A stretch of DNA of 32,000 bases from Methanosphaerula subterraneus (GTDB taxonomy: Archaea; Halobacteriota; Methanomicrobia; Methanomicrobiales; Methanospirillaceae). Position numbers and translations under genes: made by a program. Below are positions 8,645 to 23,740 of this stretch, in pieces (positions within the stretch are counted from its first letter, which is position 1; every line of letters begins with the position of its first letter). The stretch covers positions 1,300,177 through 1,332,176 of the forward strand of contig NZ_CP170508.1 in NCBI RefSeq assembly GCF_052055875.1, written 5' to 3'. The notes under the pieces were generated by a model, which had not been told where the DNA came from, made no database searches, and was given only the letters and a program-made list of their open reading frames with translations.

Positions 8645-8719
<75 letters not shown>

Positions 8720-11755: not shown

Positions 11756-12429
11756 CTCAGAATGAAACCCTGCATCACAATCCCGACAGGCGGAGTCAGA
11801 CTGCCACTCTGATGGGGCCGCCCCTGGTGCATACAGGGGCTTTGCTGAAGGCGTGGAACCAGCAGTAGCGAAGATGAAGGAGTCTCGGCGACCGTGATCA
11901 GTGCCATGAGAATCGGCTGTACCCACAACGGGCATTTATGATTATTGAGACGACGAACACCGGCCCTTCGCCTCTGTCGTTCAAGGAGAGCAGGAGGCAT
12001 GACACGGCCGGGGTGCTCGGCATCGGTGCAGTTTTATTCTCCAGTAGCGGTATGAGGGGGAGGTACGGTCCCCCGTCACATCTGCTGTCACATCTGTGAT
12101 GCCGCCGATTCCATCGTCTCAATTGCATGCCTCTGTCTCTGGGACAATTCCCATCGTTTTCGAATAATGTTTATAACCATTGTACCTTATTGTGTCCCCT
12201 TGAGGGTTAGTAGGGGACGACTTCCCCCGCAGCCGTCCCAGATGCCAGCGGGCAAGGACGCGGAGGCAGAAAACAGGGACCGGTCCCGGCAGAGGTGATG
12301 CCGGCACCGCGATCTCATCAGAGACTGCCGCCGGAACAGAGGGCCCCGGGTGCATCTGGCCAGTGATGATGAGAGATGCGAACACCGGGTGTCAGTGACA
12401 TCCGTGCCAAATCTTATGGAGAGAGAAAG

Positions 12430-14370
12430 ATGCATGCAAGCAAACAGTCCCCTCCGACTCAGGAGGGATCGCCATCCCCGTCGAGAGGGAGTCCTGGTGC
12501 AGGTACGATACGAACCTTCGTCATCGTGCTCCTGCTCGGCGCCATCCTGATCGCAATCGTAACGCCCGCCATCGGTGCTCCCCCGGCCCCAGGGCCGGTT
12601 CTGCTGGACCCGATGACGATCCCGAAGTATGTCAACCAGATCGACGGCCCACCGCCGGAGTACGTCCCGGTCTCCGGGAATACGTATGAAGTGAACGCGA
12701 CCGAGTTTACAGAGCAGATCCTCCCCGCCGGGTTCCCCACGACGAAGGTTTGGGGCTACGGGGGTCTGGCCAGGGACACCGTCACCGGCCAGTTCCTCGG
12801 GTTCGTCCGGAACTCGCCCGGCCCCAGTTTCAACGTCACCCGGGGCACGCAGATCACCGTGAAGTGGATCAACGAACTGACCGGAAACCACATGTTCGCG
12901 GTCGACCCGACCCTCCACTGGGCAAACCCGAACAACATGTCCATGATGCCGACCCTGCCCTGGAACCTGTTCCCACCCGGGTTTACCGACGCACAGCGTA
13001 ACGTTCCCCTGGTGACGCATGTCCACGGCGCCGAGGTCCAGTCGACATCCGACGGCCACCCCGACGCCTGGTGGACCGCAAACGGCACGCAGGGTATGGC
13101 ATATAACACGGCCCAGGCCACCGAATCCAACGCCGCCGTCTTCCAGTATCCGAACGCTCAGCAGGCGGCCACGATCTGGTACCACGACCATGCGCTCGGC
13201 ATCACCCGGATCAACGTGATGTCAGGACTGGCAGGCTTCTTCCTCCTCCGCGATCCGTCGAACCCGGTCGACGCGGTTCTGCCGACAGGGAAGTACGACA
13301 TGCCGATCGCGATCCAGGACCGCACCTTCAACGCCGACGGGTCGCTCTACTTCCCGACGGTCGGTCTGAATCCAACGATCCACCCCTACTGGCAGCCCGA
13401 GTTCTTCGGCAACACGATCATGGTGAACGGCAAGGTCTGGCCGAATATGAACGTGGACCAGGGGACCTACCGGCTCCGGCTTCTGGACGGATCGAACGCC
13501 CGGTTCTACACCCTGAGTTTTTCAAACAAGATGGCGTTCACCCAGATCGCATCCGACGGCGGGTACCTCAAAACCCCTGCGACCCTGACTGAACTGACGA
13601 TGGCGCCGGGTGAGCGTGCGGAGATCCTTGTCGACTTCTCGAAGCTCGCGCCAGGCACGAAGGTGATCCTGACGAACACGGCGAAGGCGCCGACACCCCG
13701 CGGAGCACCCGCGGATCCCCAGACGACCGGCCAGATCATGCAGTTCACGGTGACGGCAAATCCCGGCCCCGCGTTCCCAACCCTGCCGGCCACGCTGAAC
13801 CCGACCCTTAACGGAACCTTCCCGAACCTGCCGGCGCCCACGACGACGCGCTTCCTGACACTCCAGGAGGTCATGGGAGCGGCCGGTCCCACCGAGATCC
13901 TCCTCGATGGAAAGAAATGGATGGCCCCGGTCTCCGAGAACCCCACCAACGGCACGACCGAGGACTGGGTGATCATCAATCCGACGGCGGACACACACCC
14001 GATCCACCTGCACCTGGTCCAGTTCCAGCTCGTGAGTCGTCAGGCCTTCCAGGTCAAGAAGTATCAGACCGACTGGATGGCCCTGAACGGGATGCCCCCG
14101 TTGCCGCTCACTGCCACGGTGATCACGCCGAACATTGTACAGTATCTCCAGGGGAAGGCCACCGGGCCGTTACCGAGTGAACTGGGATGGAAGGACACGA
14201 TCCAGATGAAGCCGGGCGAGGTGACCAGGATCCGGGTACGGTTCGCGTCGCAGGACGGGACGTCGTATCCCTTCGATCCGTCCGTGGGGCCCGGGTACGT
14301 CTGGCACTGCCACATCATCGATCACGAGGACAACGAGATGATGCGCCCCTATCTGGTGCAGCCCTCCTGA
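12430..14370 (+). CDS. Multicopper oxidase (CotA/bilirubin-oxidase/laccase-like, three-domain) with an N-terminal hydrophobic anchor or signal
   Basis: All four MCO copper motifs are intact: THVHG (HVH at 13018..13026), WYHDH (13177..13191), HPIHLH (13996..14013) and HCHIIDHEDNEMM (14305..14343). I prefer the start at ATG 12430 (MHASKQ...), which follows ggagag with an 8-nt spacer; the track ORF opens at 12376. The hydrophobic segment is IRTFVIVLLLGAILIAIVTPAIGA, and there is no twin-arginine motif. Confidence 0.9.
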   Translation: MHASKQSPPTQEGSPSPSRGSPGAGTIRTFVIVLLLGAILIAIVTPAIGAPPAPGPVLLDPMTIPKYVNQIDGPPPEYVPVSGNTYEVNATEFTEQILPAGFPTTKVWGYGGLARDTVTGQFLGFVRNSPGPSFNVTRGTQITVKWINELTGNHMFAVDPTLHWANPNNMSMMPTLPWNLFPPGFTDAQRNVPLVTHVHGAEVQSTSDGHPDAWWTANGTQGMAYNTAQATESNAAVFQYPNAQQAATIWYHDHALGITRINVMSGLAGFFLLRDPSNPVDAVLPTGKYDMPIAIQDRTFNADGSLYFPTVGLNPTIHPYWQPEFFGNTIMVNGKVWPNMNVDQGTYRLRLLDGSNARFYTLSFSNKMAFTQIASDGGYLKTPATLTELTMAPGERAEILVDFSKLAPGTKVILTNTAKAPTPRGAPADPQTTGQIMQFTVTANPGPAFPTLPATLNPTLNGTFPNLPAPTTTRFLTLQEVMGAAGPTEILLDGKKWMAPVSENPTNGTTEDWVIINPTADTHPIHLHLVQFQLVSRQAFQVKKYQTDWMALNGMPPLPLTATVITPNIVQYLQGKATGPLPSELGWKDTIQMKPGEVTRIRVRFASQDGTSYPFDPSVGPGYVWHCHIIDHEDNEMMRPYLVQPS

Positions 14371-15316: not shown

Positions 15317-15892
15317 CTATACCCGCCGCACCACGCGGCAGGGGTTGCCCACGGCCAGCACGCCGGCAGGGATATCATGGACCACGACGCTGCCCGCACC
15401 GATCGTCGTGCCGGCTCCGATCGTCACGCCGGGACAGACGATCGCCCCGCCTCCGATCCAGACATTCTCCCCGATCGTGACCCGCGAGGCCAGTTCGAGG
15501 CCGCGAAGCCGGTCGACTGGAGAGACCGGGTGGTGAGCGGTATAGATCTGCACCGACGGCCCGAAGAGCACATGGTCCCCGATCCGGACCGTGGTTGAGT
15601 CGAGGATGACGCAGTTGAAGTTGATCGCCACGTCGTCGCCGATATGAATAGTACTGCCGTAATCGCAGGAGAACGACGGTTCGATGAGGACATTCGTACC
15701 CATTGAACCGAGAAGTTCGCGCAGCAGCGAGGCCCGCAGGTCGTCCTCGCCCTCATTCGATCTGTTGAAGAGCCCGGTCAGCCGACGGGCCCGGGCTCGG
15801 GCCTGCGCAAGCCCGGGATCGCCGGCATCGTAGAGCTCCCCTGCGAGCATCTTCTCGTGTTCAGTCCTCTCCGGCGCTATCGTCTTCCGCAC
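15317..15892 (-). CDS. Maltose/galactoside O-acetyltransferase-family enzyme (Mac N-domain plus left-handed beta-helix hexapeptide repeats)
   Basis: 191 aa. The N-terminal EKMLAGELYDAGDPGLAQAR...FN is the Mac domain. It is followed by the hexapeptide repeats IGDDVAINFNCVILD..VRIGDHVLFGPSVQIY...VTIGENVWIGGGAIVCPGVTIGAGTTIGAGSVV. Confidence 0.9.
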   Translation of the reverse strand: MRKTIAPERTEHEKMLAGELYDAGDPGLAQARARARRLTGLFNRSNEGEDDLRASLLRELLGSMGTNVLIEPSFSCDYGSTIHIGDDVAINFNCVILDSTTVRIGDHVLFGPSVQIYTAHHPVSPVDRLRGLELASRVTIGENVWIGGGAIVCPGVTIGAGTTIGAGSVVVHDIPAGVLAVGNPCRVVRRV

Positions 15893-15997: not shown

Positions 15998-18514
15998 TCA
16001 GAGCACCGAATAGATCGCAAACCCGGCCTCCTCCAGGAACCGTGGGATCGTGCGAATGGCGTCCCGGTCCTTCTCCTTAACATCGTCCGAGAGAGATCCC
16101 CAGGGAATGAGGTCGGGATGCACCCTCTCTTCATTGTCAAGCACCTCTCCTCTGACCCAGCCATTCCGCTTCATCTCCTCCATCCAGCGGCCGTGCTCTT
16201 TTTGGGCGAGCAATTCCACCTGAAGATCGGAGAATGCCATCACCACCCGGTCGACGCCCATGGCCTTCGGCATGATCCCGCAGTTCACCACCCGCAGTTT
16301 CTGCCGAATCTCCCGCGCCTGATCACGGGTGGACTCCCTGAACTCCTCCGGAAGCGTCTCCCACGGTAACGCCATCGGCGGTAGTTGACCTGCGGTGCCC
16401 GGCGTCACGTTGGCCAGATACTCCGCGTGGATGGCCAGGGCCATCGGTTCCACCATGCGCTCGAAGAGGATGTCCTGCAGCATCAGCAGCCTGAAGAGAG
16501 CCGCGTCCACATGGAGTGCGAGTTGCTCTATCGGCGGGATCGATGCAGGATCGAAGATCTTCTTATCGGTGAGGGTGCTCATCTCCACAATCGCCTGCAT
16601 CGACCGCACACCGTGGCGATAGGCGGGAACCTTCAGAAACGCCCGGAGAACTCCAGAGTCGATCGGGACCATCCCGGACGCGGTGACAAGGTGTTTCGCC
16701 GTCCGTTCGATGATCGAGCGGAGAAGGAGGGCCCGGCGCACAAGATACCGACCTTCGTCATCCGGACCGGGGTTACAGCCCCGGATGTCGATCCGCCCCC
16801 GAAGCCGGCTGATGAAATCGGGTACCTTCGCATTCTTCAGCGCGGGGCCATCCTGGACACCACCCCCCTTCGCGAACTCATCGAATGAGACGCTCGTTCC
16901 GCCGGCGAAGACGAAGACCGCCCGGCCGATCGGGTGCGACGACTCGCCGTCCTTGAAGACCCCGTCCTGCATCGGGGCGAGGAAGAACCGGAGCCATCCG
17001 AGTGGGTGGTCCCCGAACCGGGCGTCGAACTCGTCGAAGAAGACAAGGGGGATCTTCCCTTCGAGGGCCGCGTCCCGGATGAGGTGAAATGCGCCGACGA
17101 GGTCACGCGTGGACTCGAACTGCGACAGGTTGAAGGTCATGGGCTCGATCTGCTCGGGGGCCATCCCCTTCGAGAGCTCGCTGACCCCAAACGACTTGCC
17201 CGAGCCCGGGGGCCCGAAGACGGCGAACGAGAGCGGTCGACGGATCTGCGTGTTACTGATGTACTCCGCCAGAAGGTTGCGGATGCTCTGGTAACTTTCG
17301 ATCTCGTCCCGGTCGACGACGACCAGGTTATTGAACCGTGCGATCGGAACGGGATTCTGCAGCGCCCCCACGCCTTCCCGCACAATCCGACGGGCAATCT
17401 CCTCGAACTGGGTCCGTTCGAGGTGATGGAGGATGGTCCAGTGGGGATCGTCTTCGAGGGCCTGGAGATCGTCGAAGTCGACACGTTCGATCAGGCCGTC
17501 CTCGGGGACCGACGGCGTGAAGAGTTCGGGGCCGGGATAGGCAGGGGCGCCGGGGTCCGTCCCGTACCCGAGGCGGAAGAGGCGGCGGGAGGCGATGATC
17601 CCCTCCCTGACACCGTCTATTGTCCCGGCCTCACCGTCGCAGGCGAGGCGGCGGGTGAGTGCCGCGACGAAGGCCGGGGTCAGCCCCTGCATATCACCGG
17701 GGTACTGGTACTGGTCCTTATAGGCATCCTCGTACCCCTGGGGATCGAACAGGAACGTTGCAACCGAGCCTTCGCCGGTGCGCCGGAGGACGAGGGCGCC
17801 GTCGATTCCGATCCGGATGACCAGGGTCGAAACCGCGGTCAGCGGGCGGAGGGCAGGGTTGTAGGCGATCTGCCAGGCGAGGTCGGTAACGGTCCGCTCC
17901 CACGAGAGCCGGCGGCTGATGTTCGCCCCGAGGGTCCGGAGGTCGTTGGCCGAGATGACGACGACCAGGCGATCAGCGTGGTCTTTGAGGAGGCGATCCC
18001 AGAGTCCGCCTCTGGCGAGCGGATGGCTCATCTTCAGGACGACGAGAGGGCGGGACTCCGGGTTCTTGATGGCCGAGGGCCAGGCTGTATCGTTATCGCG
18101 GAACCCGTTGCCGGCGTCGTCAAGGACAACGATCGTCGCGTCCGCAGGATCGTCATCGAGTGTTGAGACGGCGCCGGCCCCGTCGGCCGGGCCCGAGTAG
18201 CCGAGATACTGGCGGACGCGGAGTACCGTGCTCTCTTTGTTGCCCTTGTCGGTCCCAATCCGGGCGAGGGAGTGGAGGACGGTGTCGGAGGCAGAACCCT
18301 TCAGATCATCAAAGTTGTAGGTGTGCACCGGGTAATCGACCGCGTCGACGAGCATATGGGCGACGAGCAGGGCGCCGCCAGCGTACTGGTGCCAGCGGTA
18401 ACCGGGGTACTTGCGCCAGTTCCGGGGGTCGTCCTCCTTGAGGGGACAGTCGACCTGCAGCCAGTCGAGGGCGATATCACCGGCGACGACGATCTTCGGG
18501 GATTTCTTGTTCAT
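15998..18514 (-). CDS. Large cytoplasmic fusion protein: ribokinase/pfkB-like N-domain, AAA+ ATPase, two C-terminal RyR-domain repeats; function unknown
   Basis: 838-aa ORF with normal amino-acid composition, whereas the overlapping frames are Arg/Pro/Gly junk. Motifs are listed in the three sub-features below. No signal peptide or TM segment. Confidence 0.9.
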   Translation of the reverse strand: MNKKSPKIVVAGDIALDWLQVDCPLKEDDPRNWRKYPGYRWHQYAGGALLVAHMLVDAVDYPVHTYNFDDLKGSASDTVLHSLARIGTDKGNKESTVLRVRQYLGYSGPADGAGAVSTLDDDPADATIVVLDDAGNGFRDNDTAWPSAIKNPESRPLVVLKMSHPLARGGLWDRLLKDHADRLVVVISANDLRTLGANISRRLSWERTVTDLAWQIAYNPALRPLTAVSTLVIRIGIDGALVLRRTGEGSVATFLFDPQGYEDAYKDQYQYPGDMQGLTPAFVAALTRRLACDGEAGTIDGVREGIIASRRLFRLGYGTDPGAPAYPGPELFTPSVPEDGLIERVDFDDLQALEDDPHWTILHHLERTQFEEIARRIVREGVGALQNPVPIARFNNLVVVDRDEIESYQSIRNLLAEYISNTQIRRPLSFAVFGPPGSGKSFGVSELSKGMAPEQIEPMTFNLSQFESTRDLVGAFHLIRDAALEGKIPLVFFDEFDARFGDHPLGWLRFFLAPMQDGVFKDGESSHPIGRAVFVFAGGTSVSFDEFAKGGGVQDGPALKNAKVPDFISRLRGRIDIRGCNPGPDDEGRYLVRRALLLRSIIERTAKHLVTASGMVPIDSGVLRAFLKVPAYRHGVRSMQAIVEMSTLTDKKIFDPASIPPIEQLALHVDAALFRLLMLQDILFERMVEPMALAIHAEYLANVTPGTAGQLPPMALPWETLPEEFRESTRDQAREIRQKLRVVNCGIMPKAMGVDRVVMAFSDLQVELLAQKEHGRWMEEMKRNGWVRGEVLDNEERVHPDLIPWGSLSDDVKEKDRDAIRTIPRFLEEAGFAIYSVL
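16010..16453 (-). other. Tandem RyR (ryanodine-receptor-type) domain repeats (aa ~688-748 and ~764-835)
   Basis: Repeat 2 is ELLAQKEHGRWMEEMKRNGWVRGEVLDNEERVHPDLIPWGSLSDDVKEKDRDAIRTIPRFLEEAGFAIY. It fits the RyR consensus lA..He.W.....GW.yG......hP.L.p...L....Ke.DR..vr.....l...G..i. Repeat 1 (MALAIHAEYL...LPWETLPEEFRESTRDQAREIRQKL) is a more divergent copy. Confidence 0.75.
16715..17332 (-). other. AAA+ ATPase module (aa ~395-600)
   Basis: Walker A FGPPGSGKSF (17192..17215), Walker B IPLVFFDEFDA (17024..17047), sensor-1-like VFVFAGGTS, and the arginine-bearing segment PDFISRLRGRIDI. Confidence 0.85.
17525..18514 (-). other. Ribokinase/pfkB-like domain, probably degenerate (aa 1-~330)
   Basis: The KIVVAGDIALDWL opening, YAGGALLVAH (GG motif region) and VVLDDAGNGF are present. 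Where pfkB kinases have DTxGAGDxF, the sequence reads YPGDMQGLTPAFVAAL. This assignment is by eye only. Confidence 0.4.
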
Positions 18515-21520: not shown

Positions 21521-21585
21521 ACCCCGTTCTGTCTGCTACCCGGCAGAACACTCTTCACCATAATCAGGGACGCCGCCATTGACCC

Positions 21586-21597
21586 AAAAAATTAAAT
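21586..21597 (+). promoter_or_regulatory. TATA-like box upstream of the cupin gene
   Basis: aaaaaattaaat lies about 65 nt upstream of ATG 21662. A gaggg sequence sits 6 nt before that ATG. Confidence 0.35.
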
Positions 21598-21661
21598 GTG
21601 CACGACGCGTCAAAGGGGGATTGCCATATTGTCCCAGGGACAAACGACACGAGGGTATCAT

Positions 21662-22063
21662 ATGAAGAAAGGATTTGTTGCAGATATTGAGAAGGAAACG
21701 AAGAAGAACACGGACTTTCGCCGGGTACTGTACACTGGGAAATTCTCCCAGCTGGTCCTGATGAGCCTCAAGCCGGGTGAGGAGATAGGGGAGGAGGTGC
21801 ATGACGATGTCGACCAGTTCTTCCGATTCGAAGAGGGGGAGGGCGCAGTCGTGATCGACGACGCCGAGCATAAGGTGAAGGACGGGAGCGCAGTGGTCGT
21901 GCCGAGCGGCGCCAAGCACAACGTGCTGAACACCTCCAAGACCGCAGACCTCAAACTCTACACAATCTACTCGCCGCCCGAGCACCAGGACAAGGTCGTG
22001 CGCAAGACCAGGAAAGAAGCCCTCGACAAAGAGGAGCACTTCGACGGAAAGACGACCGAGTAG
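21662..22063 (+). CDS. Small cupin-domain protein
   Basis: I prefer ATG 21662 (MKKGFVADIEKE...), which is preceded by gaggg; the track ORF starts at 21596. Cupin motif 1 is GEEIGEEVHDDVDQFFRFEEGEG and motif 2 is GSAVVVPSGAKHNVLN. Confidence 0.8.
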   Translation: MKKGFVADIEKETKKNTDFRRVLYTGKFSQLVLMSLKPGEEIGEEVHDDVDQFFRFEEGEGAVVIDDAEHKVKDGSAVVVPSGAKHNVLNTSKTADLKLYTIYSPPEHQDKVVRKTRKEALDKEEHFDGKTTE

Positions 22064-22194
22064 GTCGGTTGAGGCGCAAGTCTCATTCGCGGTCTTTGGA
22101 TGCCGCCGGGAACTCGGTGATCGTCTGCAGTGCAGAAGGGACGAGACTTCTGCCGGAAGGATACGGTGGGGATCTGTTCGATCCCGGGTACCTG

Positions 22195-22206
22195 TTTTTC
22201 TTTTTT
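22195..22206 (+). terminator. T5 + T6 runs downstream of the cupin gene
   Basis: cctgtttttcttttttcc at 22191..22208. Confidence 0.4.
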
Positions 22207-22378
22207 CCATTCGTGAAGAGCCGGGCATGAGCGATATGGGTTTTCCCATGCCGGAGGCCGGAGGCTGCCTCCTATCTCCCTGGATTCCAGATACGCTTAT
22301 ATCCCTCCGACTCGTTAGAACCGACAGCGATCCCGCGGTTGGAGAACTTCGGATCGGGCAGGGAGTTGAAGAGACGGT

Positions 22379-23740
22379 ATGGAAGGAGAGAACGGCGCTG
22401 ACGAGATCAACGACTTCGATCTTGTGGTGATCGGGACCGGGGAGGCCGGACCGGCCATGGCCCGCCGGTGCCGGCGTGAAGGCTGGTCGGTGGCCATCAC
22501 CGACGAACGCCCGTACGGCGGAACCTGTGGTCAGAGGGGATGCGTCCCGAAGAAGGTGCTGAACGGTGCGGCCGAGACGGTCGACCGGGCCCGGCGAATG
22601 CGGGGATACGGGATCGGTGGTGAGTGCCATATCGAGTGGGCGGACCTGATCCGGTTCAAACGCGGATTCACCGAGCCGGTTCCGTCGAGGCGAACAGCAG
22701 CCCTTGCAAAGGACGGTATCGTCTGTCTCCACGGCCCGGCGCGATTCACCGGCAGGAACGAACTCCTGGTCGGGGACGATCCTGTCACTGCACGGTTCAT
22801 CGGCATCGCGACCGGTGCGGTCCCCCTGCCCCTCTCCATTCATGGAGAGGAACTGGTGTCGACGAGCGACGACTTTCTTGCGATGGAATCGATGCCCGGA
22901 CAGATCCTCTTCATCGGCGGAGGGCTCATCTCCTTTGAGTTCGGGTTCATCGCTGCAGCCGCCGGAGCCAGCGTGACCATCCTCCACCGGAGCGAGAGAG
23001 TTCTCAAAGGGTTCGACCCGTTCCTGGTGGATCTCCTGGTCGAGTCCTGCCAGGAGCTGGGGATCCGCATCGAGACGGGTGTGCCGGTCTCGACCGTGGA
23101 GCAGGCCGGCGGACACCTCCGCGTACAGAGCGGAGACCGGACCTTCGAGGCCGAGTTGGTCGTGCACGGGGCCGGCAGGGTGCCGAACACCGCCGGTCTC
23201 GACCTTGCTCGCGGAGAGGTCGCGACCGATGCACGGGGTGGGATCGTGGTGAACCCGTTTCTCCAGAGCGTCTCCAATCCGTCGGTGTACATCGCCGGGG
23301 ACGCAAACCCAGGGGGAAAACCCCTGTCCCCGGTGGCGCACCGCGACGGAACGAGTGTGGCTGAAAACATGCTCCATGGAAACACGGTTGCGCCGGACTA
23401 CTCGGCCGTGCCGACCGCGGTCTTTTCCAACCCGGTGCTTGCAATGGTCGGCCTCGGGGAGGATGAGGCGGCCAGACATGGCATTCCGGTCACCATCTAC
23501 CGAGCAGATACACGGGACTGGTACACCACCCGGAGACTCGGGCTCGCCCGGTCTGGATACACAGTACTGACCGACGGCCCGATGGGCAGGATCCTCGGGG
23601 CCCACCTCCTGGGATACAACGCCGATGAGATGATCAACATATTTGCCCTGGCGATTCGGAAACACCTCACCCTCGCCGACCTGCAGGAGATGGACTGGGC
23701 ATATCCAACAGCGATCCAGGATATCAACCGGATCAGGTGA
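22379..23740 (+). CDS. Class-I pyridine-nucleotide-disulfide oxidoreductase (glutathione reductase / dihydrolipoamide dehydrogenase / MerA-like family)
   Basis: 453 aa. It has the FAD fold DLVVIGTGEAGPAMA, the redox-active disulfide GGTCGQRGCVPKK (C-x4-C), a second dinucleotide fold ILFIGGGLISFEFG, YIAGDAN, and a C-terminal dimerisation domain. Confidence 0.85.
   Translation: MEGENGADEINDFDLVVIGTGEAGPAMARRCRREGWSVAITDERPYGGTCGQRGCVPKKVLNGAAETVDRARRMRGYGIGGECHIEWADLIRFKRGFTEPVPSRRTAALAKDGIVCLHGPARFTGRNELLVGDDPVTARFIGIATGAVPLPLSIHGEELVSTSDDFLAMESMPGQILFIGGGLISFEFGFIAAAAGASVTILHRSERVLKGFDPFLVDLLVESCQELGIRIETGVPVSTVEQAGGHLRVQSGDRTFEAELVVHGAGRVPNTAGLDLARGEVATDARGGIVVNPFLQSVSNPSVYIAGDANPGGKPLSPVAHRDGTSVAENMLHGNTVAPDYSAVPTAVFSNPVLAMVGLGEDEAARHGIPVTIYRADTRDWYTTRRLGLARSGYTVLTDGPMGRILGAHLLGYNADEMINIFALAIRKHLTLADLQEMDWAYPTAIQDINRIR

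Follow-up and report, generated by a model that had tools for sequence, protein, structure and literature searches.

Binding and cleavage of cyclic ADP-ribose (cADPR) immune signals by ryanodine receptor (RyR) domains have been known only since 2026, and for small phage anti-defence proteins. RyDEP of the mycobacteriophage DyoEdafos is a glycosidase of the RyR/Repeat12 (R12) fold that cleaves 2'/3'cADPR by means of a catalytic dyad, H75 and D117, with W78 stacking on the adenine and H100 contacting the phosphates; of eight phage homologues tested, six bind without cleaving despite conserved residues (PMC13232231). RyR Tad, which is gp68 of Pectobacterium phage CB1, sequesters 3'cADPR with a Kd of 43 nM, binds 2'cADPR and cADPR at <1 µM and holds its ligands through H129/W132, K147/H154 and K170/D171 (10.64898/2026.06.04.730250). 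Among defence systems, TIR and SLATT genes together make up type VII Thoeris, which signals by canonical cADPR, and the survey that covers it mentions no RyR, AAA+ or PfkB-like component (10.64898/2025.12.03.692087). Here, we report the analysis of an 838-amino-acid (aa) protein encoded in a 32,000-nucleotide stretch of the Methanosphaerula subterraneus genome (NZ_CP170508.1, positions 1,300,177 to 1,332,176; hereafter the window), in which a PfkB/ribokinase-like head, an AAA+ ATPase and a tandem RyR tail are joined in one chain. The family of this protein points to a host-side counterpart of the phage proteins: a large group of cellular proteins that couple the same pocket to an ATPase and to a head derived from a kinase.

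The function that we infer for the 838-aa protein, with a probability of roughly 0.45, is that of a soluble ring-forming AAA+ ATPase probably controlled by an ADP-ribose (ADPR)-type nucleotide. An ADPR-type nucleotide would bind in the pocket of RyR repeat 2, and its binding at the tail would switch how the AAA+ module assembles or turns over ATP; this module, in which the Walker A, Walker B and arginine-finger motifs are intact, would in turn drive the N-terminal head. The head would most likely be the output or a second ligand site for a ribose-containing anionic metabolite. In this genome, an enzyme encoded elsewhere would have to supply the signal, unless an endogenous adenine nucleotide serves as such. 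The comparisons given below suggest that the tail is the sensor and the head the output, which is the reverse of the assignment made in a preliminary description of the gene.

The gene occupies exactly the interval given in the preliminary description, and every motif quoted there, namely KIVVAGDIALDWL, YAGGALLVAH, VVLDDAGNGF, PGDMQGLTPAFVAAL, GPPGSGKS and LVFFDEFD, was located in its open reading frame (ORF; Table 1). At least 1951 homologues were found in databases; of the top 120, the majority match over the full length with 42-99% identity. The orthologue in Methanosphaerula palustris, annotated as 'RyR domain-containing protein', is 88% identical, and codon comparison with it gave a dN/dS of 0.13 overall (head 0.16, AAA+ 0.09, RyR 0.12); purifying selection acts on all modules. 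In view of the homologues and the dN/dS value, the ORF is a real gene and not a chance product of high-GC sequence. The anatomy of three modules was likewise borne out, with the head, AAA+ and RyR calls all holding.

The tail of the 838-aa protein has one Pfam match to PF02026, at aa 765-834 (E 4.8e-13, 49.6 bits against a gathering threshold of 27.4). When the tail was searched with phmmer against the Protein Data Bank (PDB), RyR1-3 (RyR2 at E 1e-14), the bacterial entries 3NRT and 6UAG and, without gaps, 35tm were retrieved. The first repeat was recognized through cross-repeat BLAST alignments with a TrkA_N-RyR protein (E 0.004 and 0.025), through the two Pfam RyR stretches found in several relatives and through structure, as 165-190 residues of the model superpose on the entire Repeat12 of human RyR3 (848-1055) and on a Bacteroides/human chimera (Bt-hRyR). 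The Foldseek match to RyR3 R12 has a probability of 1.00 and a template modelling score on the target of 0.5-0.67, and the matches include ATP-, ADP- and dantrolene-bound RyR3 structures, 6uhh and 9l9b among them. The two repeats described earlier, the second of them strong, are thus both present. From Pfam, an AAA match, two PF02026 matches and a PF00294-like match had been expected; the AAA match and one PF02026 match were obtained, and the second PF02026 match and the PF00294-like match were absent.

In alignment with gp68, the ligand residues H129, W132, K147, H154, K170 and D171 correspond to H774, W777, L792, H799, K815 and D816, so that five of the six are identical, and the spacing in repeat 2 equals that of H75, W78, H100 and D117 in RyDEP. 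The alignment was made with gp68, DyoEdafos RyDEP not having been retrieved when the phage collection was searched by tblastn with the RyR segment. Among 44 family members, H774 and D816 occur in all 44, position 777 is W in 33, F in 6 and Y in 5, and position 799 is Ser, His or Asn. Repeat 1 retains H696, an aromatic residue at 699 (Y699 here) and W718, and its acidic residue has changed to Asn or Thr (T729 here). As phage RyR domains bind or cleave cADPR signals and their binding residues recur here, the tail is most probably an ADPR- or adenine-type nucleotide pocket, as predicted from its residues, and not the protein-interaction module proposed earlier. The earlier statement that prokaryotic RyR copies have no assigned function has been overtaken by the phage studies (PMC13232231; 10.64898/2026.06.04.730250).

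The central module matches PF00004 barely above the cut-off (E 2.7e-4, 21.8 bits against 21.2). GPPGSGKS, FFDEFD, the sensor-1 strand FVFAGGT and the SRLRG arginines are invariant in the 44 sequences, and the fold was confirmed with a model of the ATPase and RyR parts (aa 346-838) that has a predicted local distance difference test score (pLDDT) of 77.5. The nearest PDB folds found by Foldseek were those of NtrC1, PspF, FlrC, FleQ, DmpR, VpsR, the second nucleotide-binding domain (NBD2) of ClpB, ORC/Cdc6 and BrxL; NtrC1, ClpB and ORC were matched with a probability of 1.00, and the matches as a group are generic (E ~1e-7 to 1e-5, 11-16% identity). Since the matches spread over bacterial enhancer-binding, HCLR, ORC and clamp-loader proteins, no AAA+ clade was assigned. 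The complete AAA+ motor of the preliminary description is upheld as far as the fold and motif set are concerned, and ATP hydrolysis and ring assembly are predicted from them.

Taken literally, the preliminary description would make the protein a STAND-like single-gene immune sensor with the RyR repeats as a protein-binding tail for target recognition. Faint nSTAND_NTPase5, AAA_16 and KAP matches around the P-loop and the frequency of STAND genes near relatives are in keeping with such a sensor. However, every STAND-type match lies below its curated cut-off, and the module has the AAA+ hallmarks (SRLRG arginine finger, sensor-1 strand and lid) and in structure matches ring AAA+ proteins instead of STAND/NB-ARC proteins. 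Nucleotide binding by RyR domains has moreover been demonstrated elsewhere (PMC13232231; 10.64898/2026.06.04.730250) and the pocket is conserved here. A sensor of this kind is very unlikely.

The head was modelled with AlphaFold2 on the family alignment (pLDDT 89.6, predicted template modelling score 0.92). A Foldseek search of the PDB with this confident model gave 172 matches at E<=1e-3, the best at E 4e-11, and the top 50 are all PfkB-family kinases, matched with probability 1.00 over nearly the full length at 11-17% identity. HldA, ribokinase, ketohexokinase and the M. jannaschii nucleoside kinase were the best matches (E 4e-11 to 1e-8), and fructokinases were also found. The ribokinase-like head proposed for aa 1-~330 is therefore recovered by structure alone, not by hidden Markov model (HMM): Pfam gave no PF00294 match at E<=1, NCBIfam likewise gave no PfkB, and no PfkB was found when a 23-sequence family profile was run at E<=10 against every PDB sequence. 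Comparison of the head with the E. coli ribokinase RbsK by hhalign gave a probability of 0.7%. The sole borderline profile match (E 0.46), to the phosphoribosyl pyrophosphate loop of orotate phosphoribosyltransferase at 'VVVVDD', was judged coincidental. No viral structural homologue of the head was found in BFVD.

Both kinase motifs are altered in the head. By the order of secondary-structure elements, the equivalent of NXXE is A189-[D/N]-D-L-R193, with R193 in 44/44 sequences, and that of DTxGAGD is G273-x-M275-x-G277-[LFV]-[TSN]-[S/A/P/C/N/I]-A-F, with Asp at the catalytic position in 0/44. G277 is present in 43 of the 44 sequences, position 280 is S in 22, A in 6, P in 5, C in 4, N in 3 and I in 3, and A281 and F282 are conserved; in the model, a helix starts at residue 278. 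The degenerate anion hole and non-canonical kinase noted earlier thus hold across the family. Judged by motif, the family as a whole lacks the Mg-binding glutamate of NXXE (now R193) and the catalytic aspartate of GAGD, and the head is consequently not a conventional kinase. Residues of the sugar-pocket type are retained (G12-D13, G46-G47 and D132-D133), and ~20 polar residues of the head are invariant, including D13, D17, N32, G46, G47, R99, D132, D133, N136, R139, K161, R193, S204, W205, E206 and E262, so that the pocket is probably functional, though not as that of a canonical kinase. In the model, one 38-residue helix has replaced the usual C-terminal adenine-binding helices of PfkB proteins.

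When 1.84 billion representatives were searched exhaustively with a profile, 2,111 members with the head were recovered, 819 of them at E<=1e-30; as there are only 2,111 matches overall, canonical PfkB kinases are not among them in any number. The head is always N-terminal among the 150 best matches listed, and most proteins have ~830-1000 aa. The lost glutamate (an invariant Arg) and aspartate (0/44), the absence of PfkB HMM or profile similarity, the lack of canonical PfkB kinases in the exhaustive search and the replaced adenine-binding helices all speak against the idea that the protein joins an active sugar or nucleoside kinase of the PfkB type to a chaperone-like ATPase, an idea for which the PfkB fold with its GG dipeptide and N-terminal GD motif would speak. 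A true kinase is extremely unlikely, and the STAND sensor discussed above is unlikely as well.

The linker, AAA+ and tandem-RyR chassis of the 838-aa protein was also observed behind a TIR head, in the paralogues P0121, P0122 and P0141. P0121 (TIR-AAA+-RyR) aligns by BLASTP to aa 336-837 with 35% identity. Walker B is degenerate only in P0121 and P0122 (FFKNFD and FFKKFD), P0121 having a degenerate arginine finger too, and the motifs of P0141 are intact. The gene immediately before P0121 encodes a full PfkB-like-AAA+-RyR protein, and this arrangement suggests a ring of mixed active and inactive subunits. In rare fusions, an extra NUDIX domain (P0254, 995 aa) or TIR domain (P0267, 1187 aa) is present at the C-terminus. 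Variants of ~675-745 aa that have the PfkB-like head and AAA+ but no RyR tail were seen in metagenome-assembled genomes (MAGs) of Methanomassiliicoccales and Methanosarcinales and in metagenomes; besides those in Table 1, they include P0242, P0260, P0265, P0271 and P0295. The head-AAA+-RyR layout was also seen in P0191 (869 aa, 35 member sequences) of the black yeast Hortaea werneckii, with a head hhalign probability of 99.9% and without the DDAGNGFR motif; horizontal transfer into a eukaryote, or contamination, is possible.

Gene neighbourhoods of relatives were compared at 84 loci by all-against-all ORF clustering with local HMMs and Pfam, and partners were counted within 6 kb. No neighbour is universal across the 84 loci. 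RyR, TIR, SLATT or STAND partners are found within <=6 kb at 20 of the 84, mostly on the same strand and with gaps of 3-230 bp, and 22 of 86 loci are operon-like with such partners or NUDIX, in many phyla and including relatives of 72-76% identity. The partners are membrane proteins with two transmembrane helices (2TM), TrkA_N (RCK) and tandem RyR; RelA/SpoT-SLOG-RyR proteins; a TIR-AAA+-RyR paralogue; stand-alone TIR, TIR-STAND and MshEN-TIR proteins; SLATT proteins; and STAND NTPases of the DUF4062-NACHT or NB-ARC-WD40 type. TIR genes lie in the neighbourhoods L004, L006, L007, L008, L013, L024, L073 and L085. The nearest relatives outside Methanosphaerula are in such clusters: TIR and TrkA_N-RyR flank the family member of L004 (69% identity), the order in L085 (72%) is TIR, family member, TrkA_N-RyR, TIR, MoxR-like and, further on, TIR-NB-ARC, and that in L086 (76%) is two NACHT genes, family member, NUDIX and, further on, RelA/SpoT-SLOG-RyR. 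In L013 the order is SLATT, 2TM-RCK-RyR, family member and TIR-STAND-TPR. The likeness to NTPases of conflict or signalling systems seen in the preliminary description agrees with these TIR, SLATT, STAND and NUDIX clusters.

Most of the 2TM-RCK-RyR neighbours begin with two or three predicted transmembrane helices, followed by TrkA_N (RCK) and then tandem RyR; the transmembrane scan covered the members other than that of L085 and predicted no helices in the L009 member. The layout recalls MthK-type K+ channels and would make these neighbours prokaryotic RyR-domain channel-like proteins; no pore signature was identified in them. In the RelA/SpoT-RyR proteins, a central SLOG domain (LSDAT_prok) was detected in L001 and L020, was faint in L086 and was not detected in L015. 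SLATT_1 matched five of six SLATT neighbours tested (best E 1.4e-8). The SLATT neighbours have a soluble N-terminal domain of ~250 aa with a conserved 'GGTAEIV' segment, followed by four to five transmembrane segments; this domain, to which Pfam gave no name, looks LOG/SLOG-like by eye.

The family belongs to a so far undescribed RyR-centred network of Thoeris-like arrangement, in which the tail is carried by 2TM-RCK, RelA/SpoT-SLOG, TIR-AAA+ and PfkB-like-AAA+ units. The tail module is reused, the AAA+-RyR chassis is reused, and genes of TIR signal generators, SLATT pores, NUDIX proteins or STAND NTPases are linked to the family in a quarter of the loci. It is because the same tail sits on channel-like, alarmone-synthetase-like and TIR modules of the output type that the head of the 838-aa protein is read as a candidate output.

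The roles of head and tail may also be exchanged. The head would then sense a small molecule (nucleoside, sugar phosphate, or phage-derived or stress metabolite) and license the AAA+ ring as the regulatory domains of DmpR and FleQ do, and the RyR tail would be the output, a RyDEP-like glycosidase or sponge that clears or buffers signals of the cADPR type and so serves as a self-limiting off-switch for TIR signalling. DmpR is regulated by phenol, and FleQ and VpsR by cyclic di-GMP; ligand-regulated activators are the structurally nearest AAA+ modules. Sensing by the head would also suit the invariance of H774 and D816, the equivalents of the RyDEP dyad, the occurrence of TIR-AAA(-RyR) paralogues together with a family member instead of in its place, and the ~20 invariant polar residues of the head as a specific pocket, and NUDIX, an ADPR-degrading fold found fused or adjacent, fits signal clearance. 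Yet the dyad is no proof of catalysis, since six of eight phage RyDEP homologues bind only (PMC13232231), the presence of the RyR tail on obvious outputs (2TM-RCK, RelA/SpoT and TIR) argues for a common input, and RyR-less variants of head and AAA+ exist, so that the core could work without the proposed output. We consider this exchange of roles unlikely.

The family comprises >2,000 clusters at 50% identity and is patchy, with relatives in at least 309 of 185,579 species-representative genomes. Among them are many cultured members of Clostridium, Sporomusa, Desulfosporosinus and Bacillus/Neobacillus, along with several lineages of methanogens, Planctomycetota, Chloroflexota, Desulfobacterota and others. 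It is present on three plasmids and in none of 50,697 phage records; being cellular and absent from these records, it is not a functional member of the anti-defence proteins. The earlier statement that the protein fits no named system agrees with PADLOC and NCBIfam, neither of which gave a match for it. No earlier description of a cellular RyR-AAA+ family was found in the searchable literature, subscription-only papers being outside its scope.

The gene occurs in the window as an orphan, solo copy. Animal RyR Repeat12 has been proposed as a 'metabolic sensor', and a housekeeping regulator of metabolic or energy state may be envisaged here, in which the R12-like domain would sense ATP/ADP or free ADPR, the AAA+ module would remodel a cellular target and the conflict neighbours would be incidental. 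This would accord with the solo gene beside ordinary signalling and metabolic genes in the window, in M. palustris and at ~48 Bacillota loci, with the stable synteny and purifying selection in Methanosphaerula, and with the ATP/ADP binding of RyR3 R12 (PDB 6uhh, 9l9b). It accords poorly with the patchy distribution, the occasional plasmid carriage, the absence of a conserved neighbour in Bacillota, the TIR and NUDIX fusions and the tight operon-like TIR/SLATT/STAND/NUDIX linkage at 22 of 86 loci, which extends over many phyla and includes the closest relatives. Such a regulator is quite unlikely; as animal R12 binds ATP and ADP, solo copies like this one may nonetheless sense energy state in a housekeeping role. 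Linkage of Bacillota members to chemotaxis receptors, histidine kinases and response regulators was discarded, the 10-16 loci being about what is expected for such abundant families.

Several points weigh against an ATPase controlled by an ADPR-type immune signal. Leu (L792) stands at the position of K147 of RyR Tad, where >90% of the family have Arg, and position 799, a His here, is occupied by Ser in one half of the members. Since animal R12 binds plain ATP/ADP, the ligand could be something other than an immune signal. No TIR, SLATT or RyR partner lies in the 32-kb window or at the M. palustris locus, and ~48 loci of the Bacillota type have none, L021, where a SLATT gene is adjacent to the family member in an uncultured Eubacteriales MAG, excepted. 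PADLOC has no model for the 838-aa protein. The equivalence of head and PfkB motifs follows the order of secondary-structure elements and not a residue-level superposition, and as the head has no recognisable catalytic residues, a role as 'effector' has no chemistry behind it.

A wider hypothesis is offered tentatively, and as a whole it is rather doubtful. Cellular RyR proteins would be receptors of TIR-made (cyclic) ADPR in a multi-output Thoeris-like immune network of bacteria and archaea, in which one signal would trigger the 2TM-RCK channel-like protein, the RelA/SpoT alarmone synthetase, the TIR-AAA+ NADase and the PfkB-like-AAA+ unit at once. The pseudokinase head would be a new nucleotide-directed effector, and animal Repeat12 and the long-debated cADPR-RyR link would descend from the prokaryotic module. 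If true, TIR/ADPR signalling would gain a new receptor domain and new effector types and would reach methanogenic archaea. What would be new in the 838-aa family, among conflict and signalling proteins responsive to nucleotide signals, is the combination of receptor and effector. Defined residues (H774, W777, H799, K815 and D816) and clusters (L013, L085 and L086) are hereby supplied for experiments.

Synteny was seen between the window and the M. palustris genome, both of which have a divergent PAS histidine kinase gene as well as TPR, PALP and NAD kinase genes. A maltose-O-acetyltransferase-type gene lies on the same strand, 105 bp downstream of the 838-aa gene, and the M. palustris locus has short ORFs and a TetR gene in its place. 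Co-occurrence with this acetyltransferase, raised earlier, failed beside the 88%-identical M. palustris orthologue and in all clustered neighbour families, and a partnership was ruled out on these grounds. A 709-aa ORF has no Pfam match and overlaps an ORF on the plus strand that agrees in size and position with the Pyr_redox_2 gene at the corresponding place in M. palustris; the 709-aa ORF is most likely a shadow ORF of high-GC sequence and not a gene. The tRNA-Glu(UUC) gene and the gene of a 959-aa CBM6/CBM35-GSDH-cupredoxin protein are common to the window and M. palustris. A multicopper oxidase gene was also seen, and the copper/redox genes are unrelated to the 838-aa protein.

Table 1. 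Coordinates of features in the window and, where a locus is named (L numbers), in loci of relatives
Feature	Location	Strand	Evidence or remark
Complete ORF, 838 aa + stop, PfkB-like head/AAA+ ATPase/tandem RyR (R12-like)	15998..18514	-	ATG start
PfkB/ribokinase-like domain with beta-lid, aa 1-335, pseudokinase by motif	17510..18514	-	AlphaFold2 and Foldseek
Degenerate anion-hole segment PGDMQGLTPAFVAAL, aa 272-286	17657..17701	-	PfkB DTxGAGD position by secondary-structure order; no catalytic Asp
Helical linker between head and ATPase, aa 336-394	17333..17509	-	Part of chassis common with TIR-headed paralogues; lower pLDDT
AAA+ core and lid, aa 395-685, predicted pre-sensor-1 beta-hairpin aa ~519-528	16460..17332	-	PF00004, motifs, model
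Walker A GPPGSGKS, aa 434-441	17192..17215	-	G434, P436, G437, G439, K440 and S441 invariant, 44 sequences
Walker B LVFFDEFD, aa 490-497	17024..17047	-	F492 through D497 invariant
RyR repeat 1, aa 686-755, divergent	16250..16459	-	Cross-repeat alignments, column counts, alignment to RyR Tad and repeat 2, R12 superposition
RyR repeat 2, aa 756-838, canonical PF02026	16001..16249	-	Pfam E 4.8e-13
Predicted ADPR-type nucleotide pocket H774, W777, H799, K815, D816 (repeat 2)	16067..16195	-	gp68 alignment
Separate NUDIX gene, 152 aa	L086:12630-13088		Directly downstream of 76%-identical homologue
2TM-RCK-RyR neighbour, ~600-680 aa	L004:12780-14645		
2TM-RCK-RyR neighbour, ~600-680 aa	L013:8573-10474		
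2TM-RCK-RyR neighbour, ~600-680 aa	L025:7869-9902	-	
2TM-RCK-RyR neighbour, ~600-680 aa	L073:5896-7692		
2TM-RCK-RyR neighbour	L083:5164-6999	-	
2TM-RCK-RyR neighbour	L009:2394-4205		
2TM-RCK-RyR neighbour	L085:12484-14355	-	
RelA/SpoT (alarmone-synthetase-like) with C-terminal RyR, ~840-910 aa	L001:16277-18847		
RelA/SpoT with C-terminal RyR	L015:12895-15621		
RelA/SpoT with C-terminal RyR	L020:11646-14225		
RelA/SpoT with C-terminal RyR	L086:14686-17214		
SLATT neighbour	L012:12495-14228		
SLATT neighbour	L013:6942-8570		
SLATT neighbour	L034:12601-14274		
SLATT neighbour	L021:2189-3658		
TIR-headed paralogue P0121	L008:12715-14697		
RyR-less variant, head + AAA+	L047:4876-6984		
RyR-less variant, head + AAA+	L056:8590-10701		
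RyR-less variant, head + AAA+	L072:10001-12103		
Maltose-O-acetyltransferase-type gene	15317-15892	-	Mac + hexapeptide
709-aa ORF, most likely a shadow ORF	21536-23665	-	
ORF overlapping the 709-aa ORF	22379-23740	+	
tRNA-Glu(UUC)	8645-8719	+	
CBM6/CBM35-GSDH-cupredoxin protein, 959 aa	8841-11720	-	
Multicopper oxidase	12376-14370	+	

Compared with the PfkB/ribokinase family (PF00294), the head has the same alpha/beta fold with a four-stranded beta-lid, the GG dipeptide, an Asp following strand 1 and a further acidic residue behind the central strand. It differs in lacking sequence or profile similarity and the NXXE and GAGD motifs, in its replaced adenine-binding region and in being always fused to AAA+. 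The ATPase core is structurally nearest to sigma-54 activators, ClpB NBD2 and BrxL, including the predicted pre-sensor-1 beta-hairpin, and the regulation of those proteins by flanking sensory domains is a further likeness to the 838-aa layout. Unlike sigma-54 activators, the protein has neither a GAFTGA loop nor a helix-turn-helix DNA-binding domain, so that the resemblance is one of the core only; GAFTGA is absent from the sequence, and Pfam gave no Sigma54_activat or HTH_8 match. No protease or substrate-threading partner was identified. It differs from STAND NTPases in having only sub-threshold AAA_16, KAP and nSTAND_NTPase5 matches, a ring-AAA+ fold and no repeat arm.

The tandem repeat covers the full 848-1055 domain of RyR3, and in animal RyR Repeat12 the equivalent cleft binds ATP/ADP and dantrolene. 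The 838-aa protein is, in contrast, soluble and prokaryotic, has no channel, SPRY or other RyR modules, and its repeat 1 is strongly diverged. With RyDEP and RyR Tad it has in common the PF02026 fold and five of six gcADPR-binding residues (H, W, H, K and D) at identical spacing, and the equivalents of the RyDEP catalytic dyad are invariant in the cellular family. The two phage proteins, however, act against defence and are small homodimers (139-183 aa), whereas the predicted cellular chain holds both repeats and fuses them to AAA+ and a PfkB-like head.

The arrangement may finally be compared with Thoeris. Its effectors ThsA (SIR2-SLOG) and type VII ThsH (SLATT) resemble the 838-aa protein in having a receptor for a nucleotide signal, which is a proposed one here, fused to an output, and related loci have the family member together with TIR and SLATT genes in an operon. 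The receptor would differ in being RyR instead of SLOG or Macro and the output in being AAA+ and a pseudokinase; no TIR gene is linked to it in the window, and the family is absent from the 2025 Thoeris survey (10.64898/2025.12.03.692087) and from PADLOC. Lying outside any defined system, the 838-aa protein would, by this comparison, work most like a signal-receptor-effector of the Thoeris type.

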